This document shows positions 3,776 through 51,857 of a stretch of DNA of 64,000 nt, one piece after another. How positions within the stretch are numbered: position 1 is the first letter of the stretch; every line of letters starts with the position of its first letter. The notes under the pieces were generated by a model. The model worked only from the letters and a program-made list of their open reading frames with translations. It was not told the origin of the DNA and searched no databases. Source of the stretch: Macrostomum lignano (Eukaryota); contig NIVC01002764.1 of NCBI GenBank assembly GCA_002269645.1, positions 38,755 to 102,754 on the forward strand. Reading direction: 5' to 3'. The translations under genes and the position numbers were made by a program.

Positions 3776-4980
3776 ATATGCACGCGGTTGTTTTGTCTTC
3801 CGCAATCTAGTTTTCCCTTTCTGTTTTTTGTTCTCGCTAATTTTCTCTATCTTTTCGCATATTTCTTCCATTGTTCTCAAACCGTACCCCTATCTACCAG
3901 ACTCCCTGAGTGATGTCACATCCTACCTGAATTCACCCACCACCTCGATTTCTTTTTTTTTAATTTTGCACGCGATCCCTCGTAAAATTTCCTTTTTAGC
4001 ATGGCACAGTGACGCCAGACTGTGAGTAGCAAATCGAAGAGAGCTGACACGGCAACGGCTTTGGAGGGCGTCACGTGACCGACCATGGCACTCTATTTTT
4101 AAAGCTAAGGATTCACTGTTGACCATCCCAGCATCAGCTTCATCAAGACAGCAGCGACAGCCTGCTTGCAGTATCAGAATCAATTGCGGGGATGCTAAGG
4201 ATTCATTGGTATTTAGCTCTGGAGATTAAAAAAATTAATAGAACTTGAAGGAGAGCAGTTTCCTATGTCCGGTTGGGATTTTGGAATCAAAGGATTCTAA
4301 GAAAATTAGCGCTGACAGTCAGAAGTCAAGTATTTTTGCTTTTCTCTTAACTGGTAAACGATGAAAAGGACGCAACCACAGACAGTGCGGCATTTCGCTC
4401 AGACTAGCAACTTTATTGCCACGGTAGAACTCAGTGCATAAAAACAAAACAAGAGCCACAATCGCTGCTAACTGCAAGCAGAAGAAAAGCTGGCGGACAG
4501 AATAAAGAAGAAAACACAAAACAAAAATAATACAGCTTATAATCAAACAGGATGCGGGCACGAGGCATTTTGATTAATAAGCATTTTTTAAACTAAAAGC
4601 AAAAAACAACATGTCGTAAACTCTACTCGCTACTCGGACAGTATAGTAGAATAATACGCTTTTTTGTTAAAACACGGAAGATTTGTAAAACAATGCTGGC
4701 AGAAAATAAACAGAACAGCCAATTTCGAAAACGAAATAATAAACCGCAAGGGCGGCCTTGAAGCAGGTGGTGCGTATGCTTTGAAACTGACAGATTTTAA
4801 ACAAACTGGCTCTACTTTAATTGGAAACTTGACTAATGAAGTTGATTGAATAACTGCGATAAATCCTATAAATTACTCTTATTATCACCAGCTCATAATC
4901 TGCGAATAACTGAATAAGAGATTAAACAAAATATAATGAGAATGAGTAAAACTGAGAGACAGGGGATGAAGAGGGTGAGG

Positions 4981-6335
4981 AAGAGGGGGGGGAGAGGGGG
5001 AGGAAAAGAGGGAGGAAGAGGGGGAGGAAGAGGGGGAGGAAGAGGGGGAGGAAGAGGGGAAGAAGAGGAAGGGGAAGAGGAGGAGGAGGAGGGGAAGGGG
5101 AGGAGGAGGAGGAGGGGAAGGGGAGGAGGAGGAGGTGGAAAAGGGGAGGAGGAGGAGGAGGAGGGGAAGGGGAGGAGGAGGAGGGGAAGGGGAGGAGGAG
5201 GAGGAGGGGAAGGGGAGGAGGAGGAGGAGGGGAAGGGGAGGAGGAGGAGGAGGGGAAGGGGAGGAGGAGGAGGAGGGGAAGGGGAGGAGGAGGAGGAGGG
5301 GAAGGGGAGGAGGAGGAGGAGGGGAAGGGGAGGAGGAGGGGAAGGGGAGGAGGAGGAGGAAGGGGAGGAGGAGGAGGAGGGGAAGGGGAGGAGGAGGAGG
5401 AGGGGAAGGGAGGAGGAGGAGGAGGAGGGGAAGGGGAGGAGGAGGAGGAGGGGAAGGGGAGGAGGAGGAGGAGGGGAAGGGGAGGAGGAGGAGGAGGGGA
5501 AGGGGAGGAGGAGGAGGAGGGGAAGGGGAGGAGGAGGAGGAGGGGAAGGGGAGGAGGAGGAGGAGGGGAAGGGGAGGAGGAGGAGGAGGAGGGGAAGGGG
5601 AGGAGGAGGAGGGAAAGGGGAGGAGGAGGAGGAGGGGAAGGGGAGGAGGAGGAGGAGGGGAAGGGGAGGAGGAGGAGGAGGGGAAGGGGAGGAGGAGGAG
5701 GAGGGGAAGGGGAGGAGGAGGGGAAGGGGAGGAGGAGGAGGAGGGGAAGGGGAGGAGGAGGAGGAGGGGAAGGGGAGGAGGAGGAGGAGGGGAAGGGGAG
5801 GAGGAGGAGGGAAAGGGGAGGAGGAGGAGGGGAAGGGGAGGAGGAGGAGGGGAAGGGGAGGAGGAGGAGGAGGGGAAGGGGAGGAGGAGGAGGAGGGGAA
5901 GGGGAGGAGGAGGAGGAGGGGAAGGGGAGGAGGAGGAGGAGGGGAAGGGGAGGAGGAGGAGGAGGGGAAGGGGAGGAGGAGGAGGAGGGGAAGGGGAGGA
6001 GGAGGAGGAGGGGAAGGGGAGGAGGAGGAGGGGAAGGGGAGGAGGAGGAGGGGAAGGGGAGGAGGAGGGGAAGGGGAGGAGGAGGAGGAGGGGAAGAGGA
6101 GGAGGAGGAGGGGAAGGGGAGGAGGAGGAGGGGAAGGGGAGGAGGAGGAGGAGGGGAAGGGGAGGAGGAGGAGGAGGGGAACGGGAGGAGGAGGGGAAGG
6201 GGAGGAGGAGGAGGGAAAGGGGAGGAGGAGGAGGGGAAGGGGAGGAGGAGGAGGGAAAGGGGAGGAGGAGGAGGGGAAGGGGAGGAGGAGGAGGGGAAGG
6301 GGAGGAGGAGGAGGGGAAGGGGAGGAGGAGGAGCA
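4981..6335. repeat. About 1.35-kb near-pure polypurine tract, (GGA)n-GGGGAAGGG units
   Basis: Almost only G and A on the + strand; produces the spurious G/E/R-rich and P/S/L-rich ORFs. Confidence 0.97.
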
Positions 6336-8174: not shown

Positions 8175-11100
8175 TTAATAGCGACCGCCGCCACCGCCGC
8201 TACCGCCACCGGTGAAGGCGGACCGGGCAGACACGGCGGCGGCGTCGGCAGCAGCTCCGCGAACAGCTTCGTTGGCCAGCACGCCTTGACTGAACTCCTG
8301 GCGCGCTTTGGCAAAGCTGGCACCGGTGCTTCGGTAGATGCGGTGCACCTGCAGAGCGGGCAGAGCGGGTTGCTCAGATAGAGAGTGAGGAGAAGACAAG
8401 GTACATGAAAAGGTTGAATGCTCAATTAAGAGCCGAGGCCTCACCCGGACCAGCAGGGCCATGTCCAGTCCCGCTAGGGCAGTGAAGCACAGCGCAATGA
8501 GCAGCATGAACATGCCAACTGCTGTGCTCTGCTTCATCATGACGAAGGCGTTAATCCAGCCGCAGCTGCCCAGATAGTCGAGGCCCAAGCACTGGATGGC
8601 CAGGATGCCAAACTGGACGAAGAACATCACGAAGAATAGAAAAAAGTTGAAGCTGCTGTCGTTTCTGAAATGGTGGTTTTTTATTCGATATAAACCAGTT
8701 AGGATCAGTAAGGACTTTACGAGGACTCTATGCTCAACTAGAGGATTCAGATTTTTTATTGAGGGTTTAAGATAAAATTGAGGATGACAACTTCCCAGCA
8801 ACTGAGAATTTGGAAGGAGGGTGACGGTGGCCCAGCAACTGAGGATCTGAGAGGGTGGCGGTGGCCCCAGCAACTGAGGATCTGAGAGGGTGGCGGTGGC
8901 CCAGCAACTAAGAATCTGCGAGGGTGGCGGTGGCCCCAGCAACTGAGGATCTGCGAGGTTGGCGGTGGCCCCAGCAACTGAGGATCTGCGAGGGTGGCGG
9001 TGGCAGACCAGCAACTGAAAATGATCCAGTGAGGGAATCTGAGAGTCCGGAAACTCAGCCTGAGCGCTCACTTAAAGGCCTTGTACAGCGGGCGGAACCA
9101 GCACACGTAGGAGGCCGGTACGAATGCTACGCAGACGATTAGAGACACGCCAAAGACGGTGCCAGCGTTGGTCTTGCCCGCCTGCACGCCAATGAAATAG
9201 GCCAGCGTGCCAAGAATGTTCACCAACAGTAGGCACACGTGTGCCAGCCACAGGTAGTAGGACAGGCGCACCAGGGAGCGGAACTCCGACGGGATGTCCA
9301 CGTCGATGTCCTGGTAGAAGCAGGGGCCCACCGGGGAGAAAGCTGGCAGCGGTGGCCAGTTGTTCTGCCGAACTGCGGGGATTCGGGATGGTGGAGAAAG
9401 CAATCAACAGTATATATTTTCTTTGGCTCATTAGGCTGCAAGATTTTCATGATAAGTCGCCTGTTTTTAAATGAGAAATGATTGGCGAGTCATCGCTGAG
9501 AATCTGAGAAATGATTGGCAAGTCATGCCTGAGGATCTGAGAAATGATTGGCGAGTCATGCCTGAGGATCTGAGAAATGATTGGCAAGTCATGTCTGAAG
9601 ATCAGAGAAATGATTGGCAAGTCATGTCTGAAGATCTGAGAAATGATTGGCAAGTCATGTCTGAAGATCTGAGAAATGATTGGCAAGTCATGTCTGAAGA
9701 TCTGAGAAATGATTGGCGAGTCATCGCTGAGAATCTGAGAAATGATTGGCAAGTCATGCCTGAGGATCTGAGAAATGATTGGCAAGTCATGCCTGAGGAT
9801 CTGAGAAATGATTGGCAAGTCATGTCTGAAGATCTGAGAAATGATTGGCAAGTCATGTCTGAAGATCTGAGAAATGATTGGCAAGTCATGTCTGAAGATC
9901 AGAGAAATGATTGGCGAGTCATCGCTGAGAATCTGAGAAATGATTGGCGAGTCATCGCTGAGAATCTGAGAAATGATTGGCAAGTCATCGCTGAGAATCT
10001 GAGAAATGATTGGCAAGTCATGTCTGAAGATCTGAGAAATGATTGGCGAGTCATGCCTGAGGATCTGAGAAATGATTGGCAAGTCATGTCTGAAGATCTG
10101 AGAAATGATTGGCAAGTCATGCCTGAGGATCTGAGAAATGATTGGCAAGTCATGCCTGAGGATCTGAGAAATGATTGGCGAGTCATGCCTGAGGATCTGA
10201 GAAATGATTGGCAAGTCATGTCTGAAGATCTGAGAAATGATTGGCAAGTCATCGCTGAGAATCTGAGAAATGATTGGCAAGTCATGCCTGAGGATCTGAG
10301 AAATGATTGGCGAGTCATGCCTGAGGATCTGAGAAATGATTGGCAAGTCATGCCTGAGGATCTGAGAAATGATTGGCGAGTCATGCCTGAGGATCTGAGA
10401 AATGATTGGCAAGTCATCGCTGAGAATCTGAGAAATGATTGGCGAGTCATGCCTGAGGATCTGAGAAATGATTGGCGAGTCATCGCTAAGAATCTGAGAA
10501 ATGATTGGCAAGTCATGCCTGGGGATCTGAGAAATGATTGGTGAGTCATGCCTGAGGATCTGAGAAATGATTGGCAAGTCATGTCTGAAGATCAGAGAAA
10601 TGATTGGCGAGTCATCGCTGAGAATCTGAGAAATGATTGGCAAGTCATCGCTGAGAATCTGAGAAATGATTGGCGAGTCATGCCTGAGGATCTGAGAAAT
10701 GATTGGCGAGTCATGCCTGAGGATCTGAGAAATGATTGGCGAGTCATGCCTGAGGATCTGAGAAATGATTGGCGAGTCATGCCTGAGGATCTGAGAAATC
10801 ATTGGCGAGTCATGCCTGAAGATCAGAGAAATGATTGGCGAGTCATGCCTGAAGATCTGAGAAATGATTGGCGAGTCATGCCTGAGGATCTGAGAAATGA
10901 TTGGCGAGTCATGCCTGAAGATCAGAGAAATGACCAACGAGTCTCTCACATCCGCCAGCCGGACCGCCAGGACCAGATGAGGCCATCTCAGCTTCCCTCC
11001 GTCGCTGCTCCTCTTCGCGGCGCTCAAGTTCGCGCGCTTTCGCTTCTAACTCTCGCTGGCGCCGCTCCAACTCCTCCGAGGTGATGCGCTGCTGAGCGCT

Positions 11101-22392: not shown

Positions 22393-25127
22393 ACAATTAT
22401 CGCGAATTTCAGGCCTCTGAATTTGTAAATAATGCGTATCGAAGTAATGCCAGACAGTATAGTAACAGCAGAACGCATGCCGAATTCAATAAATTTCACA
22501 GAAAACCAAATAAAAATTTTGCACCTCGTGTACATATGCCGCTTGCACCTAGTCATGCGTCTGCTAGCCACAGTAGGCCGAATAATAAAGTACAAAGTAC
22601 AGTAATTCCGAATGAGCATTCGAAGAGAGAATTCGAAGAAGATACGGAGAGAAAAGGACGAGAAGCAGTCGTCAATGGAATGCTAAGAAACCGAAAGGTC
22701 TACTTCTTGCTAGACACAGGAGCTGGACATAATTTCCTAAGCAAGAGTACTTGGAAAAAGATGTTCAGAAGTGATGAAATTGAGTTGACTACTCGAAGAG
22801 TGACTACGTTTGACGGATCAAGTGTGCGAATTGAAGGAGAAGTCAGAACGAAAATACGATTCGGAGAGATAGAGATTGAGACAGAGTTCCTGCTGTGCAA
22901 TCACGAGTGTGACGACATACTCGGGATGGAGTTCTTCATGAACTTCTGCGACAGCATCAGCCTTTCCAGAGGAATGCTTGTATTAAAAGAAGGAACCTGC
23001 ATCCCAATTCAGTTTACAAAATTACCCGTACGGGTTTGCCGAATCTACAGCCATAACAGCGTGACTATACCAGCGAATAGCGCTCTTCGAATTCCAATTA
23101 GAATGACTAAAGGATCAGAAGCCAACTATGGAACGCCAATGGTCATTGACACCATTGGAGGCCAAGTGACTACGAAGAGAAATTCCTTAGAGATGATTCC
23201 TACTCTAGTGACCATGAACGATGGAACAGGAGTAGTGGAAATAATCAATCGACAGAATGACGATATCAGACTGACAAGATCTACGCTGATTGGAGTGGCC
23301 AAACCCTTGAAGCCAGGAGGCCTGGCCTACTCTATTAACAGCAAAGGTCAAGCCAGTTCAGATGATACAATTAGGACAGTGAAGAGTGAAGAGAGTGAGT
23401 ACAGCTGGATAAACGAGATCGATTTAGGAGAAGAGCTAACATCAGAACAGAAAGGACTAGTGATCGATTTGCTAAAGAAGAACAAGGAAGCATTTTCGCA
23501 GACCAACCAAGACATGGGTCTCACCCATCTTGTGACTCATGAAATATCTCTAAAAGATACCACACCGGTCAGGATTCCAACACGCAGAATTCCACCACAT
23601 CTGCAAAAGCAAGTAGATGAGCAACTTGACGACATGCTTGCTAAGAACCTGATCCGACCGTGCTATAGTACTTATTCGACGCCGCTAGTGATAGTTCCTA
23701 AGAAGGATGGATCCATAAGAATCGTCAGTGACTTCAGGGTCCTGAATTCGAGAGTGAACTATTACCCATATCCATTACCGAACATACAAGAGACTTTCGC
23801 TCAGTTATCTGGAAGCAAGTACTTCAGTAGTCTAGATTTAAACTCTGGATACTGGCAGGTACCTATCAAAGAGGAGCACAAATTTATGACAGCCTTTTCC
23901 ACCCTTACCAGAGGCCAGTTCGAATATCAGGTCATGGCACAGGGCTTGTCTAACGCTCCTGGTACATTCCAGAGACTCATGAATTTGGTGCTGATGGGAA
24001 TACAGCACAAATTCGCAATGTCGTACATAGATGATATTGTGACATACTCAGAGAAATTCGAAGATCATCTCGGTCATCTGCAAGAAGTATTTCAAAGACT
24101 AATCTCAGCAGGACTAAAATTAAGACCAAAAAAGTGCAACTTGTTTCAGAAAGAGCTAAAGTACTTAGGGCATATCGTAGGAAGAGAAGGGATTAGAACA
24201 GACCCAGCTAAGATCGAAGCGATACAGTCATGGCCTACGCCGAAAGAGGTCAAAGAACTGCGAAGCTTCTTGGGGTTGTGTAACTACTACTGCAGATTTG
24301 TAAAGAATTACGCAGAGGCAGCGCATCCGCTATTTCAATTAACTAAGAAAGGTATTCAAAACTTTAGGGAAAAGTGGACCAAGAAACATGACGAGGCTTT
24401 CCAGCAGTTGAAGCAGAGAATGACATCGACCGAAGTACTCGCGTACCCAGAATTCTCAGAGAACGAGAATGTTCGAATGGTATTAGACACCGACGCAAGC
24501 GAAGACCGAATTGGTGCTTGCCTGGGTCAAATACAATCGGACGGGGTTGAAAGACCCATTGCTTACTTCAGCAGAGCAATGAAAGAGTCTGAGAAAAGAT
24601 ATCCGATTACCAGAAAAGAGCTATTAGCGCTAGTAGATGGCATGAAACACTTCCGATTTTACCTAATTGGCAAAAGGTTTCTGGCCCGCACAGACCACAA
24701 GGCAATTCTATGGTTACTGCGCCAGACCGAAGCCCAAGGAATTCTCGGAAGATGGATTGAAAGACTGAGTGAGTTTCAATACGATATTGAGCACCGCAGT
24801 GGAGCCAAACATTCCAACGCAGATGGATTGTCACGGCGACCCTCGGAACCACCAGTTGAACAGAAAGATGCTAAGATCAAAGAGAATGAGGCCGAAATTC
24901 CTAAGATGACAATAGAAACCAGCGCTGTGAAACAAGTCGTGACTAACAGCGTGAAAGATCAGAGTTGCCAGACCGACTTCACAGAAGAGTATGAATCAGA
25001 TTCCGAAGACGAATTCGCAGATGATGAATACGAAGATGCCAGTGATCAGTTCGAAGATATGATGACATCTATGAAGATGCAAGAGACTATTTCGAAGAGG
25101 AAGAGACAGTGTGCAGAAAGCTTCTGA
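22350..25127 (+). CDS. pol: Pol part 1: aspartic protease, reverse transcriptase, RNase H (entered by frameshift)
   Basis: Frame is open from the slip site; motifs LLDTGA (PR), LDL.SGYWQ / GLSNAP.TFQR / YIDD (RT), LDTDAS / ELLA / TDHKA (RH). Confidence 0.95.
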   Translation: MSSEGRFARPRPSSNNYREFQASEFVNNAYRSNARQYSNSRTHAEFNKFHRKPNKNFAPRVHMPLAPSHASASHSRPNNKVQSTVIPNEHSKREFEEDTERKGREAVVNGMLRNRKVYFLLDTGAGHNFLSKSTWKKMFRSDEIELTTRRVTTFDGSSVRIEGEVRTKIRFGEIEIETEFLLCNHECDDILGMEFFMNFCDSISLSRGMLVLKEGTCIPIQFTKLPVRVCRIYSHNSVTIPANSALRIPIRMTKGSEANYGTPMVIDTIGGQVTTKRNSLEMIPTLVTMNDGTGVVEIINRQNDDIRLTRSTLIGVAKPLKPGGLAYSINSKGQASSDDTIRTVKSEESEYSWINEIDLGEELTSEQKGLVIDLLKKNKEAFSQTNQDMGLTHLVTHEISLKDTTPVRIPTRRIPPHLQKQVDEQLDDMLAKNLIRPCYSTYSTPLVIVPKKDGSIRIVSDFRVLNSRVNYYPYPLPNIQETFAQLSGSKYFSSLDLNSGYWQVPIKEEHKFMTAFSTLTRGQFEYQVMAQGLSNAPGTFQRLMNLVLMGIQHKFAMSYIDDIVTYSEKFEDHLGHLQEVFQRLISAGLKLRPKKCNLFQKELKYLGHIVGREGIRTDPAKIEAIQSWPTPKEVKELRSFLGLCNYYCRFVKNYAEAAHPLFQLTKKGIQNFREKWTKKHDEAFQQLKQRMTSTEVLAYPEFSENENVRMVLDTDASEDRIGACLGQIQSDGVERPIAYFSRAMKESEKRYPITRKELLALVDGMKHFRFYLIGKRFLARTDHKAILWLLRQTEAQGILGRWIERLSEFQYDIEHRSGAKHSNADGLSRRPSEPPVEQKDAKIKENEAEIPKMTIETSAVKQVVTNSVKDQSCQTDFTEEYESDSEDEFADDEYEDASDQFEDMMTSMKMQETISKRKRQCAESF

Positions 25128-26854
25128 CAGATTACCTCTCGGTTCCATTGAAGAAAGAGCAGCTGACTTCAGCGCAGCATGCTGATCCTTCTATAAGAAC
25201 CTTGATGGACTGGAAGCAGAAGAAAGTGCGTGAGCCGAAGTTGCCAGAAAATGCATCCGGAGAGTTGAAGAAGATGGTTAAGTTCTACGAGCAGATGAAA
25301 ATCGAAGATGAAATGCTGACAGTCAGTGAAGACGGTAAACGGAAAGTAGTATTGCCAGAAAGGATTGAGAAAGATGTATTCAAAGAGCTGCATGACAGTC
25401 CGCTAGCAGGCCACCTAGGTCGGGACAAGACGCTACAGCGAGTCCGAGACCGATTCTGGAGGCCGGGGTTAGTGACTGCAGTTGAAAAGTACATCGCAGA
25501 ATGCATCCCGTGTCTGGAAAGTAAAAGCGGAAATAAAGTACGAGCACCGGTGCAGACCTTTCCGATATGCGAGCCATTTCATCGGCTGCACATAGATTTG
25601 ATCGGTCCAATATCAAAGGAAAGCAGAAGAGGACACCGATATGTACTTACTGTCGTAGATAGTACAACAAAGTTCCCATTCGCTTTTCCGGTTCGGAATC
25701 AGAAATCCGCGACTGTTATCAAAACGATACAAGAGAGAATTTTCAGCGAGTATGGCCAGTGTCAATGGATACACACTGATAATGGCAAGACTTTTGTAAG
25801 TCACCAATTTCAGGCATTCTGTACCCTATACGGCATTAAGCATACTTGCACTACGCCTTACCATGCTCAGAGTAACGGGCTTGTCGAAAGATTTAACAAG
25901 CAAATTAAATCGATTGTAACCTGTTTGATTGAAAAGGATCATTCAGATTGGGATCTGCTCATACCCGCCGCTCTGGTAGCTGTGCGAACCAGTGTTAATC
26001 AAACTACTGGGTTCACACCACACTACTTACTATTCGGGAGAGAAGCAGATTTGCCAATAGATAGCATTGTGAAAAGGCCAAGACTATACCGAGACTATCC
26101 TAGCTATGTGCTGGATCATGCGAAGAGAATCGAGGAGACAAAAGCAATTGTGCGAAGACAACTCGAAAAGGTGCGAGAGAAAAGGCAAGAGGACGAAGTT
26201 GAGAATCGTCAGCCTAAAAATGTGCCAGTTGGCTGTCTCGCTCTCATCAACAATCCTCAACTTCACCAAGAGGAGAGCCACAAATTTCATCGAAAGAAAA
26301 GAGCAGCCTATCGAGTTCTTGCGAAGATATCTGATACAGTTTTCCGTGTGCAAAGAGAAATCAATGGCGAAAGGAGCGGAGAAAAACTATTAGTACATAG
26401 AAATAATCTGACTCCAGTGCCGAAATCCGAAATTGATTTACCAGAGGAAATTAATAATAATTTAAAACCAGCACCAGTGCCAACTAAGAAGAAAGAACAG
26501 CCGAAGCCGAAGAAAAGAATTTGCCATAGACAAAAAGAAGTTAGAATTCCAGAAGTTCAAATTTTAGAGGAGGAAAGCTCAGACGAAGAAAACAGAATTC
26601 AATGGAGAGTATTCGCAGATCCGAATTCGCAGAGTGAAAACGAAGGAAATGAAGAAGTAAACAGTGAAAATACAGAGAGAGCGACTGACTCAGATGAGCC
26701 ATCAGAAGAAGAAGAAGGAGCATTAGAGTTAGAGGAGGAACGAGTTCAGCCAGAGAATAGGTATAACTTTAGGATGACTCAGCGAAGGAGAGAAAGAGAA
26801 GGCGCGACAGGATTTGTGCCCCGAAGGCGCTACGCGAAATATTTAGCACCTTAA
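25046..26854 (+). CDS. pol: Pol part 2: integrase (HHCC zinc finger, DDE core, acidic tail), out of frame (-1) with RT/RH
   Basis: HDSPLAGHLG..CIPC, RLHIDLIGP, HTDNG..F, NGLVERFN; frame open from 25046 (after TGA 25043-25045). Confidence 0.93.
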   Translation, partial: SVRRYDDIYEDARDYFEEEETVCRKLLTDYLSVPLKKEQLTSAQHADPSIRTLMDWKQKKVREPKLPENASGELKKMVKFYEQMKIEDEMLTVSEDGKRKVVLPERIEKDVFKELHDSPLAGHLGRDKTLQRVRDRFWRPGLVTAVEKYIAECIPCLESKSGNKVRAPVQTFPICEPFHRLHIDLIGPISKESRRGHRYVLTVVDSTTKFPFAFPVRNQKSATVIKTIQERIFSEYGQCQWIHTDNGKTFVSHQFQAFCTLYGIKHTCTTPYHAQSNGLVERFNKQIKSIVTCLIEKDHSDWDLLIPAALVAVRTSVNQTTGFTPHYLLFGREADLPIDSIVKRPRLYRDYPSYVLDHAKRIEETKAIVRRQLEKVREKRQEDEVENRQPKNVPVGCLALINNPQLHQEESHKFHRKKRAAYRVLAKISDTVFRVQREINGERSGEKLLVHRNNLTPVPKSEIDLPEEINNNLKPAPVPTKKKEQPKPKKRICHRQKEVRIPEVQILEEESSDEENRIQWRVFADPNSQSENEGNEEVNSENTERATDSDEPSEEEEGALELEEERVQPENRYNFRMTQRRREREGATGFVPRRRYAKYLAP

Positions 26855-27080
26855 ATCATGACGTAAGCAATTTCCCATAAGAAACAGTGTTAAATAGTTA
26901 AAATTCCGTATTAGAATTACTTATCTGCTTATAAAATTTGACATGCTGTACATAGAGCGAATCTGTAAATACCATATTAATCTACAAAATGCGATCTTTA
27001 ATTTGATACTTTACTCAAGAAAATCTATCAAAAAATAAAAAAGTTATAAAAAGAAATAGAAAATCCATAAAAATTTAGTT

Positions 27081-27243
27081 GTCAAATCTGTCAAATCTGG
27101 CATGCCCCGCCCACGCGCGAGGGGAGTGCTTCGAAGAGGTCCAGTTTTTCGGCCCGCCAGCCTATAAATACGAGCACCCTGCAGGCCCCACAGATCCCAT
27201 AGCTCACTGCTAGCTTCCTTTCTATTCTAAGAGCCATTCGCAG
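27081..27243 (+). promoter_or_regulatory. Candidate internal Pol II promoter and/or splice acceptor for ORF3
   Basis: GC box gccccgccc (27104-27112), ggcccgcc (27151-27158), TATAAATA (27163-27170), a CA dinucleotide about 29 nt downstream, and a pyrimidine tract plus AG at 27212-27231. Confidence 0.6.
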
Positions 27244-27253
27244 AGAAATCAAA

Positions 27254-28135
27254 ATGAACAACTCTATTGATATCTTGGACGAGTTAATTGGCAATCTGTC
27301 AGACGATATGGAGCCCCAGCCAGCGCCCAACACCGACGAAAATGAGGCACCGCTTCGATGTGCAACACGTCCAAAGGCGCCTGGTGTATCCAGCAAACGG
27401 CCAAGAACATCATCGCCAGCTTCATCGCCTTGCCGCCAAATGAGGGTCGAAGGCCCCGAGCAGAAGCGCGCCGCCCTGGTGGCAGCACAGGCAGCTGCGC
27501 CCGTGCGCTCCTATGTTGTCAAGGCCACGCCAGGATCGTCGACATCAAGCCGAACGCAGCAGTTGGTGTCACCGCCAGCTGCCCCATCATCGAGAAAGAC
27601 CCCGGCACCACGGCAGAAGAAATCGACAGCTGCGACACCGCCAGCTCAGCAGCCAGCGTCGCAGCCGAGCCTGCAATCAGCGCAGCAGTCAGCGTTGCAG
27701 CCGAGCCTGCAATCAGCGCAGCAGTCTAGCCAGCCATCAGCACTACAGCCGAGCCAGCAGCAATCGAATTCGCAGAGAGATTTTCATCGCATCGTCCGAG
27801 AACTTGTGGAGACTCGCGGAGCAGAGGTGGAAAAGCTACGCTTCCACATTGAGCAATACGCACTGAAAGTAGCGTACCACCGATCCGACAGCCGACAGCG
27901 CTACCCCCAATGCTCGCAAATTTGGACACCTGAAGTTTCTAAGGGATCAATTCAGTTACCAGGAACCTGTCGCTGTTCTCCAGGACGTCGCCTATCGCCT
28001 CCAGCGGGCTATAAGAGCCAACCCGCCGCCAGCGCTGACGGTCCTCGACGAAGAGTACCGATGGTTTTTCGCTCAAGTCGGCTGGCCCTACTATCGCGAC
28101 CTCCCGGAACCCTGCATGTTTATCTGAACTACTGA
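27254..28135 (+). CDS. Retrotransposon accessory ORF3, not Env-like, function unknown
   Basis: 293-aa ATG-initiated sense ORF between IN and the PPT; acidic N-terminus, S/P/A/Q-rich middle, helical-looking segment; no signal peptide or TM helix. Confidence 0.7.
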   Translation: MNNSIDILDELIGNLSDDMEPQPAPNTDENEAPLRCATRPKAPGVSSKRPRTSSPASSPCRQMRVEGPEQKRAALVAAQAAAPVRSYVVKATPGSSTSSRTQQLVSPPAAPSSRKTPAPRQKKSTAATPPAQQPASQPSLQSAQQSALQPSLQSAQQSSQPSALQPSQQQSNSQRDFHRIVRELVETRGAEVEKLRFHIEQYALKVAYHRSDSRQRYPQCSQIWTPEVSKGSIQLPGTCRCSPGRRLSPPAGYKSQPAASADGPRRRVPMVFRSSRLALLSRPPGTLHVYLNY

Positions 28136-28400
28136 GGTGAACTAACTTTTGCGTTGCCTTTAATAACAATTTTGCCTTTTATAATACTTTTATAATAGTT
28201 CGCTTTGCTTCCATAATAGTTCTCACTTTAATGGTTTACCTACATAATAGTTCTATCACAACCATTTTATGCACCAATTGTTTTAGCACTGAATTGTGTT
28301 TTCTGCACCTTGCTTTGCACCTTTTCACCTGCATTTTCCTACGATATCAATTTTTCACTGTATACATATAATATAGTATTTCGTTCAAAATTTAATATAT

Positions 28401-28412
28401 AGAGGAGGAAAG
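28401..28412 (+). promoter_or_regulatory. Polypurine tract
   Basis: agaggaggaaag, 1 nt before the 3' LTR. Confidence 0.9.
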
Positions 28413-28413
28413 T

Positions 28414-29169
28414 TGTACTAGTGCTATGCCTTTATCATAGTATACTCGAATGTTCTTTCAATGTAATAACTGTATATTCGAATCTTTCTTAGAAACTGAA
28501 TCTACGCGAACGCCAAATAATAGTTTGTTTTAATGCGCGAAATAAATTGGAGAATTATTTTTTTGTTTTAATCGTATGTGGGGGAAATCACTATATATAG
28601 GAGTGGTTTCGCGACAAATATACTCCAACTGTCTTTTACTCGTGAGCAAATAATTGCGAACAGAATAAGCAGTTCAATCTAAACCATTTCAAAGTCTTTG
28701 AGCTAAATAGCGACTTATTTATTTGCAAAACCTGTGAAACGATTCTAAGAAATTTGCTAAGAGAAGGGAATTGGGACTAATTCTTGGAGATATACCAAGA
28801 GAGGCGCCGTGACCCTCTAGTCTCGGTGAACGCCCGATTAGGACTATACACTAATACATATACCAGTACTAGACCGCTCAGGCCATAAGCTACTAGAACG
28901 CTACCAGAAAGCAAGCCATAAGCTACCAGAAACGCTACTAAGAACGCTACTAAGAACGCTACCCAGAAATATTTAAATGAAATTCTAAGAAATAGTTAGG
29001 GAGTAAAAGCAAGTATAATCAGGATAACTGTAGTTGGCAAATCGGTGGGATTAAAATTGATAAAGTAAGAGGTGAAAGGCCTGTAACAACTTTGGTGGCA
29101 GCTCGTAGGATATTTAATAAACACTAATAGTTAGAAGTTTAGAAAGACAGAGCCAAAAGGCCTGTCACA
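28414..29169 (+). repeat. 3' LTR (756 bp)
   Basis: Copy of 20492-21247 at offset 7922. Confidence 0.97.
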
Positions 29170-30924
29170 ATACTTTAGAGATAATTGAGATATAATCAAG
29201 ATTCAAGATTAAGCCTAATTAGCATCTAATAGGTCTATACCTCAATGTGTACAATGATGATAATAGAAGGAAAAGCAATTATACAATATTGTGCTTGTTA
29301 GTAACTTGATATATATCAAATATAAATATTATAATATCATAGTTATCAATTGTATAATCATATTATATGATTATAATCAATACAATACAATCAATTGTAT
29401 ATTGTATAATCATAGTTACAAATCTTGACTTTTTTAGATCTCAAAACTAAGATTAAGATTGAAAAAAGTGCAAGATCTTGATGATCAAGATTGAGATCAA
29501 GATCTTGTCCAACCCCTAGATTTTGAATATATAACATTAGTATAATAAAAATATAAAGGCTATTAGATGTGCGAAATTCAATCCCTTTTTAAAGCTCTTA
29601 AATATGCAATCTCCCTGATTTACACTAGCTATAAGATCTTATTTTTGACCAAAAATGCCATTTACAAAAGAAACAAGCAAAAATCAATGTAATTTTGGGT
29701 AAATAAAAAGAGCAACTATATTGTATTAATAAGGCTAAATGTCGAATACAATTTCTCCATTTTTAGTTGGGCTTTTTTTACTTACTCTGGTAAGGCCCCT
29801 TGCCAAATAGCTAGTTAGACCTGGTCTAATATGTGGCTAGTATGGGCCATAGACAACTCCCATTCGTCATTCTGCGTCATTAGCACCATTTTAAAAGAAA
29901 AAATTTCGCGAACGAAAGTAAATTTACACCTTGAAATTAAATTTAATAATTTATAAATTGAATAGGCCTAGCCAAGACTCAAGACTTCAAATTTAACTTA
30001 CTGAATTCGGTTAAACTTTTTAAAAAACTTAGTAGTTAAACCTGGTTAGGTCTAGACTATATTTAGATTATTTTTGTAGACTAAAACTACTCTAGGCCTA
30101 CCTAAAATCTAGGCCAGCGGCCAGGTAGGCGGCTAGGCCTAAGTTTCTACTTTATTTTATAGGCCTAGTCTAGACATCAATCAGTTATAAAGAGCTTAGG
30201 CCTAACTTGAATCTATATAACGAAATATATAGGCCACTGGTAGGGAGGGCCTAGTACAATCGTAATAATCAACTTTAAATTCAATTCAAAATTACGTTAT
30301 AAATTGCTATTCATAACATAACACTTGATTAAATTTACTCACTGAGCTTAAACGTACGTTTTAACAAAATCTGTATGATTTTTTGGACTTGGTGCAGGAT
30401 ATGAAGAATTGAAAGTTTCTTAACACTTTTTATTCTTATTTTTTATATTTAAAAATTTTTTGCTTGTGGTAACAGACTGCAAGATTACTTTAAAAAGGCT
30501 GGCTCTAAATTTTTTCGCGCATGAAAGTCAACGCAACGCGAAATCTTTCAGTCTGAGATTTTTACTTTGTTTCATTTGTCCAAATTAAGTAAGTGTCTTT
30601 TACATTTTTTTTCTAATTGTGTTCTTCTTTGATCCTTGCGTTTTTAGATCTAATCGTTTCAACATTACTATTAAATAAAGAAACCATTGTTTTCCTTTAA
30701 CATTGTTTTTCACCGCCGAACGAAACCTAAAGCTTTCCAAGCACAGTTTTTTGAAAATTAATTTCTTCGACTATAATTTTTCGTAATATCTTTTTTTACA
30801 CAATAGGCTTGTCTCTTGGTCTCTTTGCAACAGTTAAGTTGGTTTATAAATTCTAAGACGGGGTAGTATCACGTTTTAAAATATAAAAGCAAGTAAAAGA
30901 CATTTACCCTTTAATTTTATAAAT

Positions 30925-32484
30925 TTGATGAAACTTCTAGACGGCTCCACACTAAGAAATAATTCAGACCGAAGCCAGCAGATGAACTCCAAGGTTAATC
31001 CGGCGTGGCAGCCGGCTTCAACACCGCTGCAGTTGCCTTCGCCAAGTAGTGGGGATCTAGCGAGCCTTCTACAAGCGCTAGCGAACCAAACTGCGCAGAC
31101 GCAAGCAATGCTAACAGCTCTTATGACTCAGTCTTCGCAGCCTCAAAACCAGACGTCGACAGCTATTAGCATGAGTCAAAGCAACCCGGAGGCACTGCTG
31201 AAAGCACTGATGGCAGAGCTGCAACAGACTAGCCAGGGATTGCCAGCATCAGCTCCACAGGTTGATAACAAGCGGCTTAAAGTTGCCACAGTCTCTTCTA
31301 TGTCTTCATCGTCTCCTGGCAGTTCGCCATGCACTTCGCCAAACCTGGATGCAGATCTTCGCTCTACCCGTCAACTAGTGAGTAGCTTCCCATACGGAGA
31401 TGACAGCAATAGCGGCGCTAGCGGCGGTGTCGGCGGCGTCCCTGGAGGTAACGCCGGAATCATCAAGAGCGCCGTCGGCAGCAGCACGACCGGGATCATT
31501 GGCGACCAAGGAGTTCTTGCAAGAGATATAAATGGCATCACGGGTGTTCGTGAAGCAGTGAGGTATGCTTGCAGTTTTTGCTATTATGTGAGTGTGAAAT
31601 AGCCACTTCCACTCTCCCCAGTTTTACACATTCCCCTGACATTTCATCGCAATGCTCTTTCGTATGCAAAGCATTTTTCTTTTCATTTCCGCGGTCAGAA
31701 CCTTCGGCGGGCATTGGCAGAGCAACTGCATGGGAATGTGCTGAACAATGCAACCAAGGTATTGGTATAAAAATACATGGTACTGTACGTTCTAATGCTA
31801 TAGGTTCTTCGTGAGCTTCAGCTTTGATATGTCTGATTGATGCATTGTTTATGAACTGAGTTACAGTTTGTTTGGTTGAGTTGAGTTTGAGCGTGAGAAG
31901 ACTGTAAGTCACACTGACATTCAAGTACAATGGTGCTTCTAAGCTACTGAAATGCTCGACAGGACAGGAATCTGTTTGAGTGTCTGGTTCACGTTGAAGA
32001 TAGTGAAATATCTGCTTGGCTTTTCTAAAAGCATTTACGGGCAAAAACATTCGGCCTTATTTTGATATATAGCAGCAAAAGCTCGTGCACAGCAGATTGT
32101 GCTTCGGTTCGGTCATCTTTGATCGCCGGCAAAGATTTTTCAGTTATTCATAAAACCTGTTATATTAATCGCAGTATAGCCAGTTCATCAACAATTTTTT
32201 CCTGTGATATAAAACCCAATTTAATGGAAAACTTCAACTGCCTACCGTTATGCTCAATTTAAAATCCCCTATCCGACACATCAAAAGGCACGCGAATTCG
32301 TCTTGCTCAGTTATTAAGCTAAATTTCACCTCTTGTTCGTGCTTCAGTATCTGGTTGCAAAGGATACCACCCTAGGTTGCTAATTTGTAACTTTCCTCCA
32401 CGCCATTACAGGGGTCTGAAGAGACCACACCAGCATCAGTACGATCAGCATCAACAACAGCAGCAACAACAACAGCAACAACAA

Positions 32485-37344: not shown

Positions 37345-38420
37345 TAGTGATAGGGATAGTGATGGGATAGTGATGGGGATAGTGATGGGATAGTGATGGG
37401 ATAGTGATGGGATAGTGATGGGGATAGTGATGGGATAGTGATGGGGATACTGATGGGATAGTGATGGGGATAGTGATGGGATAGTGATGGGGATACTGAT
37501 GGGGATACTGATGGGGATAGTGATGGGGATAGTGATGGGGATACTGATGGGGATACTGATGGGGATAGTGATGGGATAGTGATGGGATAGTGATGGGGAT
37601 AGTGATGGGGATAGTGATGGGGATAGTGATGGGGATAGTGATGGGGATAGTGATTGGGATAGTGATGGGGATAGTAATGGGGATAGTGATGGGGATAGTG
37701 ATGGGGATAGTGATGGGGATAGTGATGGGATAGTGATGGGGATAGTGATGGGGATACTGATGGGGATAGTGATGGGATAGTGATGGGATAGTGATGGGGA
37801 TAGTGATGGGGATAGTGATAGGGATAGTGATGGGATAGTGATGGGGATAATGATGGGGATAGTGATGGGGATAGTGATGGGATAGTGATGGGGATAGTGA
37901 TGGGATAGTGATGGGGATAGTGATGGGGATAGTGATGGGGATACTGATGGGGATAGTGATGGGATAGTGATGGGGATAGTGATGGGATAGTGATGGGGAT
38001 ACTGATGGGGATACTGATGGGGATAGTGATGGGATAGTGATGGGGATAGTGATGGGGATACTGATGGGGATAGTGATGGGATAGTGATGGGATAGTGATG
38101 GGGATAGTGATGGGGATAGTGATAGGGATAGTGATGGGGATAGTGATGGGGATAGTGATGGGGATAGTGATGGGGATAGTGATGGGATAGTGATGGGGAT
38201 AGTGATGGGATAGTGATGGGGATACTGATGGGGATAGTGATGGGGATAATGATGGGGATAGTGATGGGATAGTGATGGGGATAGTGGTGGGGATAGTGAT
38301 GGGGATAGTGATGGGGATACTGATGGGGATAGTGATGGGGATAGTGATGGGGATAGTGATGGGATAGTGATTTGGATAGTGATGGGGATAGTGATGGGGA
38401 TAGTGATGGGGATAGTGATG
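37345..38420. repeat. 11-12-bp G-rich minisatellite (GATAGTGATGGG/GGGG)
   Basis: About 90 units; source of the spurious PSLS/HYPH/ITIP ORFs. Confidence 0.97.
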
Positions 38421-38865
38421 AGCAGCTCAGAGACTGGGCTGCGGGGCAAATCTCGATCTGCAGACGATTCCTACCAAGCCATTCATTCATGCAAGTAAAT
38501 TTGTGCCTATAATGGACTGACCAATCCAGCGCTACGCATTCTTGCATTCTTGGCACTTCTGATTCACCTCAGGCAACCTCTGGCATTCGCGGACTCTCAG
38601 CTGCGCAGCGCATACGCAAACGAAAGCGGACACCTGGCAAGGCCAGAATGGATGCTGCGCGCTTTTAATGCCTGCGAATTGGACTGCTGAGGGCGTGTGG
38701 GCCCTGCATGGTCTTTGAATAAATACTGAGGCTTTTGGGTCAAACACAAACACTTGAACAATGGGATAAATTTTTCGGAGTTTGACCAAGCAGTCCAGCG
38801 TCCGTTTAGCTTCATCTCACTGGAGAAGCGCGCCACCCCTGCTTTGAAACAGATTGGAGCAGCTG

Positions 38866-41800
38866 ATGATGAGGCCTTCGTCGAAAATGCTTGCTCTCGC
38901 TGCCTGGCTCTGGTGGTGCTGCTGGTGCAGCGGCTGCACGCAACTTGTCGCGTCTCTGGCAGGTGAGAGCCGTAGAACTGACAAAATTTAACATCACCGA
39001 AGCTTTTACTCAGCTGCTTCACTATAGAAGGTTTCCTGTTCATTTTTAGCACAGAATTTACAACATCTTACCATAAGACCTTCCGAATTGCAGGTGAAGC
39101 CAGTATGCGTTTTGTGCACTGACAAGCTTGATAAGATAACTTCTCGAACCTCTGATCAATGCACTGGTTTCGTAGTGTGTAATTCCTAAAATATGATAAA
39201 TAATTTATCACATCCGCGTACTCGCCAAGAGTCCAAGCAGTATCGAGCTGGGATTCCCCATTACATGTACAACCGCCGGACCAAAATTCAAAATCTTAAA
39301 CAACAAATCTGAATTTGTTTTAAAAAATTCTAGAAAGAACTTCCACTTCTGTGGTCTGTCACTTGTTCTCGATACAGTCAAATAGCATTTTTAGTATCCT
39401 TTATCTAAAATAAACTTTGTCACTTTGCACAATTGTCGACTTACAGTAGCACCGATTGAAAGTCTTCCGACTGGGCAGCAGAAAGTTGTTTATTCAAGCG
39501 CGAAGGCCCCGAGAGCTGCTGACCAGGAGCCGCACCGCGTGGACACCCGCGTAGTGGAAATTCGTTATTACGTGCAGAAGATTCACAGCATGGTTAGAGA
39601 CTATTTTCTATTCAGAATGTGCTCAATTTTATTCTGCTGAAAACAGTTTCACTCATCAATTTTAGGATGTAAGCAGTCAAACGTTCTACAGCAGCGGAGT
39701 TTTGGCACTGGTGAGACAAAGTCCCTATATACTGTCTTGCACTTGTACTACTCAAGATCCCTGAGTGAGTAGTACAACAGCTGAAAAGTGAGCTTACTTG
39801 TAGCACCTTGTACTCCGAATAATTTCTCTGATACCCAAACATCACTCAGTCTCAAAATCACTATCACTCGGTAGTGAACACCCACCGAACACCCACTGTC
39901 CCTCGGCATCTGGTGCCCGAACACCCACTGTCACTTGGCATCTGGTGCCCGAACACCCACTGTCACTTGGCATCTGGTGCCCGAACACCCACTGTCACTT
40001 GGCATCTGGTGCCCGAACACCCACTGTCACTTGGCATCTGGTGCCCGAACACTCACTGTCACTCGGCATCTGCATGGTCCCCGAACACTCACTGTCACTC
40101 GGTATCTGCATGGTCCCCGAACACTCACTGTCACTCGGCATCTGCATGGTCCCCGAACACTCACTGTCACTCGGCATCTGCATGGTCCCCGAACACTCAC
40201 TGTCACTCGGCATCTGCATGGTCCCCGAACACTCACTGTCACTCGGCATCTGCATGGTCCCCGAACACTCACTGTCACTCGGTATCTGCATGGTCCCCGA
40301 ACACTCACTGTCACTCGGCATCTGCATGGTCCCCGAACACTCACTGTCACTCGGCATCTGCATGGTCCCCGAACACTCACTGTCACTCGGCATCTGCATG
40401 GTCCCCGAACACTCACTGTCACTCGGTATCTGCATGGTCCCCGAACACTCACTGTCACTCGGCATCTGCATGGTCCCCGAACACTCACTGTCACTCGGCA
40501 TCTGCATGGTCCCCGAACACTCACTGTCACTCGGCATCTGCATGGTCCCCGAACACTCACTGTCACTCGGCATCTGCATGGTCCCCGAACACTCACTGTC
40601 ACTCGGCATCTGGTCCCCGAACACTCACTGTCACTCGGCAATCACAAGCTCCCACACCCGCTGCAGCGCTGGAATCTGTCCGCCGACAGCCCGGCGCACT
40701 GGCAGCCCAGGCTGGCCCTGTGGAATGCCGAAATTGCCGACCCCGACCGACAGGCGCTGCATCCGCAGCATCGACTTCGCATGGAGCGACACCCGTCAAC
40801 GGGACGGCTGATGACCGCATCTACGGAGCTCATTCTGCAGCCAGTGGGCCACTGCGATCACGTCAACTTTGTGCACTTTCCCAAAGATCGGCATAACTGC
40901 AGCTTTCAGGTGAAGGTCGCATTGCTTGATGCTCATTGTTCCTGGTCGGCCGTTTACTTTGTTCTCTGTTTACACCTGTGTAAATACAGTTACCCCTAAA
41001 GCTGTCCAAAATGTCTCGAAAGAGGTGTTAAATGTAAAACTTAATGGAATTTGTGCTACATTTTTGTAACATTGCAAACTTTCGAAACTAAAGAGTAACT
41101 GAGACCGCCTGGAATGTCAACAAGGCCCGAAGCTTCTTGTTGAAGTCGATTTAGCTCCCAACCACCGTCTCAGGTATTTGTATAAATTCTCAAGCTAAAA
41201 GACTCGCGTATGTTAGTTACAATTTTCGGTAGAAAACGTTGGAAGACTAGAGGTCTCTCCCGCGAACAGTCTGGGTCAACTGGAGGTGCCGGACGGCCGT
41301 AGCCCAGTGGTCTGGCGCGGCGCTCTGATTCGCCAGCGGCCCAGGCTCGATTCCAAGTGCAGTCGCATTAACTTGGGGCTAATTTGGAATCTCGGCTTGG
41401 CTCTGCTAGTGCAATTAAAGCCCTTGAAGGCCAACCCCAAAGTGCAGTGAAGTGTACATGCCTAACGATAAATAAAGTTAGGGCCGCTGTACACTCCTGT
41501 GTGAGTGTGTGCCTGCGTACGTATCCGCGCGCTTGTGAGCCTGCTCAGAGGAGTCGGCGGAATGGGCACACAGCCACCTGGCTCTTAATAAAAATTAAAA
41601 CTGGAGGTTGCTGAATTAGGACTTTGCCCTGATCATCCCATTGAATCTTCCCGCCCTTCATCTCCTCGCCGCAGGTGCTATTCGCCGACAGCCTCTCGGA
41701 CTCGGAGGCCCGCTTCGAGCTGCGCACCACCAACGATGGCCCGGCCGACTTCCTGGCCGGCTGCAACGGCGGCTGGCAGGTGCTGACCGTGGCGGACAGC

Positions 41801-42907: not shown

Positions 42908-43757
42908 TTCTGAGCTGTTTTTTGGTTTAATGTTAAGTGGCAAAACTTCACTAAATGCTCATTTTAAAAGACTGGCTCAAGTTTTCAGAATTTAAGTTAG
43001 GTCAAACCAAATTCAATTAAAACCAAATTTCACACTGAAATTCAAAAACCTTGGTTGTATAACCATTGATTTTTCTGCGGGACAACCTTTTTTCCGTAAA
43101 TTTTTTCTTTCAGAAGCTCAAAAAACAGCTCACATTGGCTACCAACTCAAAACTCCACGATATTAATTAAAATGAGATTCGGAGAATTGCATTGACCAAA
43201 AAAGTTGTTCAATTGGGAGTTTGTACTCAAAATAATTGGTACTCAAGCTTCTTGACCAAGTTTTCTCGGTTTAAAGGTTCAACGACCAGGGCCTATTAAA
43301 GTGGATTCTAAGATACTGTAGTTCATTCTAAGAAACGAATAATTTACTCAAATATTTGTAACTACTGTGAATATTCTCCATCCTTTCTTATGATTAGCTG
43401 TAATTCGAAATTGAACTTTATGTATATATTGCTCCAAAACTGACTGAATTCTAAACTATTTTCACCTCCAAGTTAATGCTCCGTTTTGCGGTCTTTAATA
43501 AAATTTTGCTTACTACTTTTGAGTAGTAAAGCTTTTGATCTGTAAACAATGTAATTCTAAGTTAAAAAGCGCTTGATTTATTATAAGCAATTTATTAAAA
43601 GAATTTTAAAAGTTGGTAATACATTATTTTCGTTTCACAAATATGAATTTTCGAGAAGTAAACATATGGTATTTTTACTTGCATTTAATTGGACATTTCA
43701 GTACAAGGGCTCGCTTTCAAAGCTCGAAATATTACATCGTCGTAGAGGCCTGTCTGT

Positions 43758-44033
43758 CACTTCCATTTCGGGACCTTCGGGAACTTCGGGACCTTCGGAC
43801 CTTCGGGACCTTCGGGACCTTCGGGACCTTCGGGACCTTCGGGACCTTCGGGACCTTCGGGACCTTCGGGACCTTCGGGACCTTCGGGACCTTCGGGACC
43901 TTCGGGACCTTCGGGACCTTCGGGACCTTCGGGACCTTCGGGACCTTCGGGACCTTCGGGACCTTCGGGACCTTCGGGACCTTCGGGACCTTCGGGACCT
44001 TCGGGACCTTCGGGACCTTCGGGACCTTCGGGA
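43758..44033. repeat. (GGGACCTTC)n 9-bp array, about 28 units
   Basis: Near-perfect tandem nonamer. Confidence 0.97.
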
Positions 44034-44651
44034 CATGTAAATTGAAAATTACATGTGCAGTCTGTATAAAAATATTGTGGAACAGTGGTGTAACACTGCA
44101 ATGAAGTTCCATAGTGTGATCGTACGCTCGTAATACAAGTACAGGACCGTCAATTAACCACTCCTTAGTAGCAATTGTCTATCAACAATAATGGCGAGCA
44201 AGTTTACATTGATATTATCTAATGCGAAGCAGGCATGCATAAGATAAAGTAGACTTACAGTGTAGAAAATACAGTATTTAACACAATGGTAGATTGTGTA
44301 TATGATTTTGGAGGTGCGCACTTTCACCATAATTTAAATAAAAAAACTTGAATTTTGTTCATTAAACTAGCTTACTTAAATATGATTCACGGAATACGAA
44401 CTTCACGCTGGGGTGTCAGGCAGAATTAAACAAATCAAATAGATTTAAGAGCAGCATTGGGATGGGACTCAAATGATAAGGGAGAATTTGAATTTGAAAT
44501 TTGAAAGACAGGTTTGCTTCCTTTTAATCCCGCGGCGAGATCGAAGCTGGTGGTATGAAATGTTACATATAGAATATATATGTTTAAGTATAGAGGTACA
44601 GACAGAGCAAAACAGGAAGCTGAGGATTAAGGTGAAGTTAAAGAAAAGTCA

Positions 44652-50830: not shown

Positions 50831-51857
50831 AAGAATTCTGAAATGCTGTGGCTCATAGGGGTTACTCGGATCCTTTGAGCCAAAGCTCACAGGGGATGCT
50901 GCTACCGTAGTCTAGATGGCTCTTTCAGATCGGATTGCTTTCTCACTTCTGACACCATTTCCTTAAAAAATCAAGTGGTGACTGTACAAGGTGACTGGAC
51001 ATGTAGTTTATTAATTTTTTATTTCTTTCTTTCTTGCCTCCAAAAAAGGTGGGCGAGGATTGCTGGTTACCAATTTCTATAAAGCTGCAAAAAGCAGAAA
51101 GCAATATCGGATTCATATACTTGGTTATTGAGTGCCATAGATTTTTAGCAAGAAAAACCAAGTTTTGAGTAGTATTGTAACACGATTTATATTTCTCGTG
51201 CATTAAATGACTCCAGGCAATACGCGATCACGAGCCATTTAAGCACGCTTTTAGCGTTTAATGCACGCTTTTACACTTTTATATCGTGTTACAATAGTCG
51301 AGCACTCGGGTCATTAGCCAGATTCGCAACTAGGAATTGCGCACCACTGCACGAGAGAAAGTCGCACTGGGGGCAACGGAGGAAATCGCTAATTTCTAGG
51401 GGCACAGAACCAGTTCGTCTGTAATATTAGCAAGGCAGATCTGTACAGTGAATTAAATTGCTTCGCGCCTAAGAGACAGTGCAAGAGAGAACCTCCTATA
51501 CATTACTTAATAGATTGCAAAAAAATTGCTTGGCACAGTAAAAAATAAAGAGAAACGATTCTAGAGCAAGCATAAAATATGATGAACCTGCTCTCCCACA
51601 CTTCTGTCTAGCTTTTAGATTGCAACTGAAAGCGTACTGTAGACTTGCCACATGTCTAGTTGCTGGTAAAATGTGGCTGGATAGATAGCGCACTGCTAGA
51701 CCACGAGTTTTACGCACGCTCGTAGCTTAACAAACTAACTCAACTTCGTAGGATTGCAATTCACTTTAATTATTAATCGATTCTAAATAATGACTTAGAA
51801 TTTCAGTTAAATACCAAAAACTCTCAGCGGCTAACCCTGGAAATACTCACAAGACTG

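Follow-up and report, generated by a model that had tools for sequence, protein, structure and literature searches.

A Non-Env Third Gene with a Putative Promoter of Its Own in a Young Gypsy-Type Retrotransposon of Macrostomum lignano

Introduction

Additional ORFs that are not env and lie between pol and the 3′ LTR are reportedly present in plant LTR elements, where they are said to be modular and exchanged. Further systems are described in the accessible parts of the articles cited here. In foamy viruses, Tas and Bet are expressed from an internal promoter that lies outside the LTR, and Tas trans-activates (PMC12789967). The Oikopleura elements Tor3b/4b are Gypsy-like, contain a spacer after pol and express their third gene, which is Env, from an internal promoter (PMC4402516). 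CERV of the C. elegans element Cer1 is a non-Env nuclear accessory protein that is made from spliced RNA, shares exons with gag, functions in the export of RNA and contains the domains H, M, and G (PMC10309623). The ORF3s of bdelloid elements are extra ORFs between pol and the 3′ LTR that encode recognisable enzymes or Env (PMC5408684), and VANC proteins are anti-silencing factors of plant VANDAL DNA transposons with a MAIN-related fold (PMC13547354). A role is known for few of the non-Env accessory proteins that animal LTR retrotransposons encode. Here we describe a third gene in a Gypsy-type element of Macrostomum lignano, its relatives in the same genome, and the readings of its function that these comparisons allow.

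Organization of the Host Element

The window is the whole stretch of 64,000 nucleotides that was analyzed (contig NIVC01002764.1). At 20,492–29,169 it contains a Gypsy-type LTR retrotransposon with the order PR-RT-RH-IN in pol, which hosts the third ORF. This is a young element, as a sequence-only reading of the window had proposed: its two LTRs of 756 bp each are 100% identical, and a 4-bp target duplication, a polypurine tract and a primer-binding site, which we take to be of the tRNA-Leu type, are present. A database protein showing 100% identity to the RT region in the window comes from Macrostomum lignano, as does one identical to the third-gene product of another copy (L072). The element is organized as follows:

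20492..21247, + strand, 5′ LTR of 756 bp, TG...CA, with the 4-bp target duplication outside
21250..21268, + strand, primer-binding site
21349..22353, + strand, gag, 334 aa, with a CCHC knuckle
22305..26854, + strand, pol (PR-RT-RH-IN), in two frames in this copy, split near 25,058
26395..26854, + strand, integrase tail, start of the sequence shared with the pol-less partners
26855..27079, + strand, A-rich spacer, its AATAAA (27,034) at chance level
28401..28412, + strand, polypurine tract
28414..29169, + strand, 3′ LTR

A second copy in the assembly (L129; G000:C882), whose flanks match those in the window, has an open pol, an LTR pair that is 12 bp shorter, and a third gene carrying the indel of the window copy as well as a second one. 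In the 3′ part of the LTR (29,042 and 29,093 in the window), here and in most families, decayed copies of the junction between LTR end and primer site were detected, up to five of them in L064; they look as though the LTR grew by capturing the primer site several times over. At 28,899–28,962, CGCTAC units occur in tandem and vary in number, and this motif recurs in the LTRs of distant families. A host gene starts approximately 1.3 kb past the 3′ LTR (30,494–31,602), and one sequencing run contained a junction from 30,588 to 30,943 with GT..AG ends. Tandem arrays are numerous in the window (1–800, 4,900–6,300, 9,300–11,000, 37,400–40,800, 43,700–44,100, and 51,800–64,000), and a 24/25-nt array spans its last 12 kb.

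The Third ORF and Its Frameshift in the Window Copy

The third ORF lies between the spacer and the polypurine tract and reads as follows in this copy:

27254..28135, + strand, third ORF as read here, 293 aa, out of frame after approximately 27,925
27254..27298, + strand, N-terminal helix, acidic and amphipathic, retained by every family
27338..27553, + strand, basic middle block (EAPLR..TRP, KR, KRAA.L..QA..P), predicted to be disordered, with a putative NLS role
27554..27769, + strand, S/Q/A/P low-complexity linker whose length varies, containing a 36-nt repeat
27770..28127, + strand, conserved domain of approximately 120 aa and five helices, in two frames in this copy, split near 27,925

The ATG at 27,254 and the 293-aa ORF reaching to 28,135 are both present as previously read. 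The third ORF is real, and its 293-aa version in the window is a frameshifted copy. This length is peculiar to the window copy and is not the form of the gene: due to a small indel near 27,925 the last approximately 70 residues are out of frame, and the conserved C-terminus continues in the other frame, ending at 28,127. The frameshift was missed in the sequence-only reading, and therefore so was the folded domain, the most conserved part of the protein. Among the 30 closest copies, 16 were open to the conserved C-terminus (ORFs of 275–291 aa), 13 including the window copy were broken by indels, and one was cut off. The open majority form was found in contigs of five out of seven sequencing runs (X4, X6, X8, X10, and X13) and, by depth, partly in X17; the contigs of X11 do not reach the place of the frameshift. 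Such indels are general to these copies, since pol is broken as often: it is open as a single 1516-aa frame in three and broken in five of the eight complete copies examined.

A Conserved Protein Family under Purifying Selection

The last 120 residues of the protein matched 150 scored places in the genome (out of 229 candidates) with identities of 26–100%, and a distant family member used as query found further families. Forty of the 150 loci were picked for divergence and long frames; in 16 of these the domain follows a complete gag-pol, in 13 it follows gag alone and lies between LTRs, in two it follows a partial pol, and nine were relics or in other contexts. Nineteen aligned proteins and an outside homologue (P0012) share a three-block layout, in which P/Q/A/S linkers of widely differing length connect an acidic amphipathic start helix, a basic block in the middle and the domain at the end. 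The acidic N-terminus noted earlier was confirmed: in each of 19 full-length proteins, the net charge over the first 39 residues was −5 to −12, and the tile of highest acidity lay at the N-terminus. The terminal domain is rich in arginine (10–19 Arg), yet its net charge is only 0 to +8. It was modeled as five helices (pLDDT 88.8, pTM 0.84), and the full-length model predicts an N-terminal helix and a disordered middle in addition to the same five-helix domain.

The absence of a membrane-spanning helix, already suggested for the window copy, held for 20 out of 20 family members (best 19-residue hydropathy at most 1.11). By hydropathy no signal peptide was detected either, the best 10-residue value among family members being at most 1.48 and the N-terminus acidic. 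Since no member has a membrane helix or a signal-like start, the product is not Env, and a degenerate env does not account for it.

Purifying selection on the third gene was shown by codon comparison, dN/dS being far below 1 and not near it. For whole ORFs, dN/dS was 0.06–0.33 in 12 out of 14 pairs (two were saturated); for the domain it was 0.03–0.25 in nine of 16 pairs, with the remaining seven at saturation. Where dS was close to 0.1 (four pairs), dN/dS was 0.13–0.33. That the ORF is a passenger, i.e., a captured host fragment or a decayed env without current role, would agree with the 13 broken copies among the 29 readable close ones. We nevertheless regard this as extremely improbable: dN/dS is at most 0.33, pol is broken to the same extent, membrane helix and signal are lacking, no host donor was found, and the only relative at a host locus keeps the promoter of the element (see below), so that it would be element-derived.

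A broken relic of the domain (70% identity) was found at L100, L117, and L118, 1.8 kb past pol in a distant Gypsy element (RT 32%) and with neither promoter motif nor LTR pair; this may be either nested debris or the result of a transfer.

A Candidate Internal Promoter Upstream of the Third Gene

The region between the spacer and the ATG contains the following elements:

27080..27097, + strand, TGTCAAATC, two copies
27120..27153, + strand, conserved 34-nt promoter-like motif with a GGTCCAG core at 27,138, once per element and absent from the LTRs
27163..27170, + strand, TATA box of the putative internal promoter
27196..27201, + strand, initiator-like CCCATA, putative start region

GC-box-like sequences at 27,105 and 27,153, TATAAATA at 27,163, an AG at 27,230–27,231, and AATAAA at 27,034 had been pointed out before, and all of them are present. 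Two of the roles given to them were rejected. AATAAA as an upstream poly(A) signal is at chance level, as it arose in 69.5% of 2000 shuffles of the A-rich stretch, and the pyrimidine tract plus AG that had been read as a splice acceptor was found in only two of 18 families.

The 34-nt motif is located 104–135 nt before the ATG in element copies and was found in 23 out of 32 sequences overall; the most distant group contains TATATAA and CCAAT in its place. TGTCAA is present at a like position in six of 18 families, as well as in the stand-alone copy at host loci described below, and CCAAT at −160 to −247 in 11 of 18. An initiator-like site follows the TATA box by 36–37 nt in five of the seven sequences examined. 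A TATA box at −115 to −60 was detected in 11 of 18 families compared to a shuffle mean of 0.42 and a maximum of 3, which is beyond chance, although 12 of 18 were likewise counted in an AT-rich control window (−340 to −285). By itself the number of TATA boxes is thus not decisive, and the weight of the promoter rests on the motif and the spacing. The putative internal promoter of the third gene is, on this basis, well supported by conservation. A capped short RNA would very probably start near 27,190–27,200 and end in the 3′ LTR.

Contigs of seven sequencing runs cover the third gene. No joint from the LTR to 27,232 is listed in these contigs, which show presence only. In run X10 the depth rises from 10.7 to 42.5 at 27,204, X17 (DNA-like) breaks there without a step, and in X4, X6, X8, and X13 one contig runs straight through this position; we place no weight on the step in X10, because contig depth cannot rank parts.

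These data also bear on the idea that the product acts on RNA in a CERV- or Rev-like manner, exporting or stabilizing the full-length RNA, with the acidic leucine-rich helix serving as export signal. CERV of Cer1 offers a Gypsy-type precedent (PMC10309623, accessible part), and the Arg-rich domain and the basic patches would suit an RNA-acting protein. Besides, the families appear by eye to retain short motifs (CCGCTC, CGCTACCA) in the 3′ half of their LTRs; these motifs could serve as RNA signals. However, no intron or splice joint of the element for which an export factor would be required was seen in the contigs, and CERV arises from a spliced RNA and has other domains. We consider an RNA-acting role unlikely, if worth pursuing.

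Pol-Less Partners and Exchange of Third-Gene Alleles

The integrase is absent upstream of the third gene in 16 of the 30 close copies. All eight of these pol-less copies that were fetched in full turned out to be 5-kb LTR elements consisting of a short gag, the integrase tail and the third gene; retention of the third gene in pol-less partner elements was shown by this composition. Pol-less LTR elements of approximately 5 kb (L061, L064, L074, L080, L122-L128, and L137) contain, besides the third gene, an ORF for a 190-aa Gag-derived protein (35–39% identity to Gag) with a Cys/His C-terminus of its own. One of them also carries an unrelated 701-aa ORF (L061, 3948–6053).

Elements whose RT regions differ by a dS of only 0.03–0.06 contain third genes that differ at a dS from 1.7 to saturated. 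Identity was scanned from −670 to the stop codon, and pairs qualified when the two families had the upstream region, but not the gene, in common; the break was located at −105 to −6 relative to the ATG in all 26 qualifying pairs (out of 136), which correspond to about eight independent events. Past the swapped gene, identity often returns inside the LTR. Related families therefore appear to swap third-gene alleles as whole coding units. The short third-gene RNA might be co-packaged, with copying reaching its 5′ end before a switch to genomic RNA, and the position of the breaks would then follow from template switches near the 5′ end of this RNA. A promoter that forms the last island of homology explains the position of the breaks too, and at higher map resolution several breaks lie within the core promoter, upstream of where the start would be expected.

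In one element (L062), an LTR of the window type (98% identity) is joined to an allele at a dS of 1.7, which speaks against a strict lock-and-key relation between protein and LTR; such a relation is not supported. Repeated 7-mers of the LTR were absent from the internal promoter in 22 out of 22 elements; with the 34-nt motif being absent from the LTRs, no element common to LTR and internal promoter was found.

Deeply diverged alleles on a near-identical pol, exchanged as whole coding units, are what might be expected if the protein were an antagonist of host defence that interferes with small-RNA or chromatin silencing by protein contact, old alleles being kept by an arms race. The clean swap of the gene without the LTR in L062, the retention of the gene by pol-less elements and the modest net charge of the domain would agree with such a role. 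On the other hand, every pair has a low dN/dS and, at this resolution, shows no sign of positive selection, and the conserved acidic helix and basic block fit a transcription regulator equally well. An antagonist of this kind has, in our estimate, a small but real chance of being correct.

Sister Lineages and a Stand-Alone Host Copy

Three sister lineages (RT 55–60%; L138-L141, L151, and L143) contain a disordered ORF with a terminal helical domain, located 5–14 nt past the pol stop or in frame with pol. In lineage B (RT 60%) the ORF starts 5–7 nt after the pol stop, and its profile score of 29.7 over 95 columns exceeded those of the controls, namely 30 block shuffles (maximum 16.0) and the reversed sequence (15.4); this ORF is probably related to the third-gene domain. 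As it lies so close to the pol stop and no TATA box was found within 200 nt, the family can seemingly work without a promoter of its own. In lineage C a helical domain is in frame with pol, in frames of up to 2215 aa. Lineages C and D scored 14.5 and 11.9, which is below their control maxima of 19.3 and 15.3, and homology of their domains to the third-gene domain was not accepted.

It could be argued from lineage B, where an ORF scoring above controls abuts pol, and from the in-frame domain of lineage C that the domain was once a C-terminal appendix of pol serving integration or particles, e.g., as a chromatin tether or packaged cofactor, and is now a separate gene. The scores of lineages C and D speak against this, as does the fact that a tether needs neither its own promoter nor an acidic helix, and we judge such an origin and role to be distinctly unlikely.

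A stand-alone gene of 118 aa, which contains the helical domain only, was found at three syntenic loci (G000:C846:44212, C3012:52820, and C2203:58541; L107-L110). It keeps the 34-nt motif and the TATA box. Both the acidic helix and the basic block are missing from it, as is the last conserved motif. Neither gag nor pol nor an LTR was found within 7.7 kb upstream of it, nor within 9.4 kb downstream at C846. Comparison of the three loci showed four synonymous versus two replacement codons (p 0.04) and no indel in the coding part. Judged from these sequences it is a candidate domesticated copy, which presumably derives from the element and not the reverse, as the promoter of the element is kept.

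Family, Fold and Literature Searches

No Pfam family was assigned to the protein: the best E-value of a single member was 0.013, and 13 families were each hit by one of 23 members. A PDB sequence search gave one match (E 0.38), and a word-indexed protein search gave no match with one query and one match (P0004) with another. The nine matches of a full HMMER scan comprised five proteins from the same flatworm, one homologue, and three TPR-like repeats, the latter rejected as chance matches. Foldseek searches against PDB and viral structures gave none at E ≤ 0.001. In the ESM Atlas no usable feature match was obtained (best TM 0.51), a blank that shows neither novelty nor absence. The best VIA-align matches were AppA SCHIC (Z 8.0, rmsd 2.3, 81 aligned residues) and Gle1 (Z 7.5, rmsd 3.2–3.5, 111–120 aligned); these scores of the modeled structure lie within the background of helical bundles, so that neither a match nor a new fold follows, and the N-terminal part is hardly covered. 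Tas was not among the matches listed in the family, PDB, and fold searches by sequence or fold, and absence from such lists does not exclude homology; the MAIN-like (VANC) fold was not among the matches listed in the fold searches.

No published account of this gene family was found in the literature covered, which did not extend to subscription journals, repeat databases or the supplements of PMC12801592, the last of which may annotate these families. The accessible main text of the latter contains no mention of "ORF," "non-autonomous" or "internal promoter."

Discussion

We tentatively prefer the reading that the third gene is a conserved non-Env gene of a Gypsy clade, that it likely gives rise to a short RNA through an internal promoter of its own, and that it encodes a protein with a predicted nuclear location and a predicted role in activating or de-silencing the LTR in trans, although the chance that this holds in full falls somewhat short of even. 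The separately transcribed or spliced accessory gene of the sequence-only reading thereby keeps its main part, i.e., a non-Env gene under purifying selection with a promoter-like region of its own, and loses the splicing alternative, for which no support was found. The combination of acidic helix, basic patches, flexible linker, Arg-rich domain and an LTR-independent promoter fits a nuclear trans-acting regulator. Nuclear location by way of the KR patches is probable. Binding of the helical domain to the element or to a chromatin factor, together with recruitment of a host co-activator by the acidic helix, is a possibility that we put forward with some reserve. Several observations count against a trans-activator. 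A published activation-domain rule (PMC10550315, accessible part) applies to the acidic N-terminus of only two of the 19 proteins, the net charge of 0 to +8 is weak for a DNA binder, LTR and internal promoter have no element in common, L062 joins an LTR of the window type to another allele, and nearly half of the readable close copies (13/29) are broken.

The stand-alone host copy, without acidic helix and basic block, could act as a competitor, which seems unlikely at present. If true, the domain-only copy would have been taken up by the host together with its promoter and would serve as a dominant-negative restriction factor. The whole would then amount to a foamy-virus-like circuit built independently by a Gypsy clade, with internal promoter, a trans-activator from a helical family not described before, a packaged short RNA that leads families and their pol-less satellites to swap activator alleles, and a domain-only dominant-negative copy in the host; taken together, we hold this to be quite doubtful.

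Within one genome, the gene is found in a series: directly next to pol, downstream of a putative promoter of its own, on pol-less satellites and, in shortened form, at a host locus. An LTR reporter assay has been run in Macrostomum lignano (PMC12801592, accessible part), and it is therefore directly testable whether a retrotransposon produces an activator, or an antagonist of silencing, for itself and whether part of this protein is used against the element by the host. Internal promoters are known for Env third genes and non-Env third ORFs are known as well; no description of this family was found in the literature covered.

Compared to the known systems, the third gene resembles VANC as an element-encoded accessory factor that diversifies between families, but it belongs to an LTR retrotransposon of an animal, and no link to the VANC/MAIN fold was seen. 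Like the extra ORFs of bdelloid elements it lies between pol and the 3′ LTR, is modular and is exchanged, whereas its domain, unlike those of bdelloid ORF3s, matched no library searched. Like foamy virus Tas, it is non-structural and is placed after the structural genes and before the 3′ LTR; its putative promoter lies outside the LTR, and a role as nuclear regulator in trans is proposed for it. It differs in that the host is a Gypsy element without env, in which no common response element of LTR and internal promoter was found and no sequence link to Tas was seen, and in that trans-activation is here predicted. With Tor3b/4b it would have in common the internal promoter for a third gene, and it shares the spacer between pol and this gene; the Tor3b/4b gene encodes a membrane glycoprotein Env, in contrast to the product described here with neither signal peptide nor membrane helix. 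Finally, the protein is similar to CERV in being non-Env, lineage-restricted and, by prediction, a nuclear accessory protein, and in combining folded domain with flexible linkers, but it is encoded by one exon, behind a promoter-like region of its own, and contains a single helical domain.
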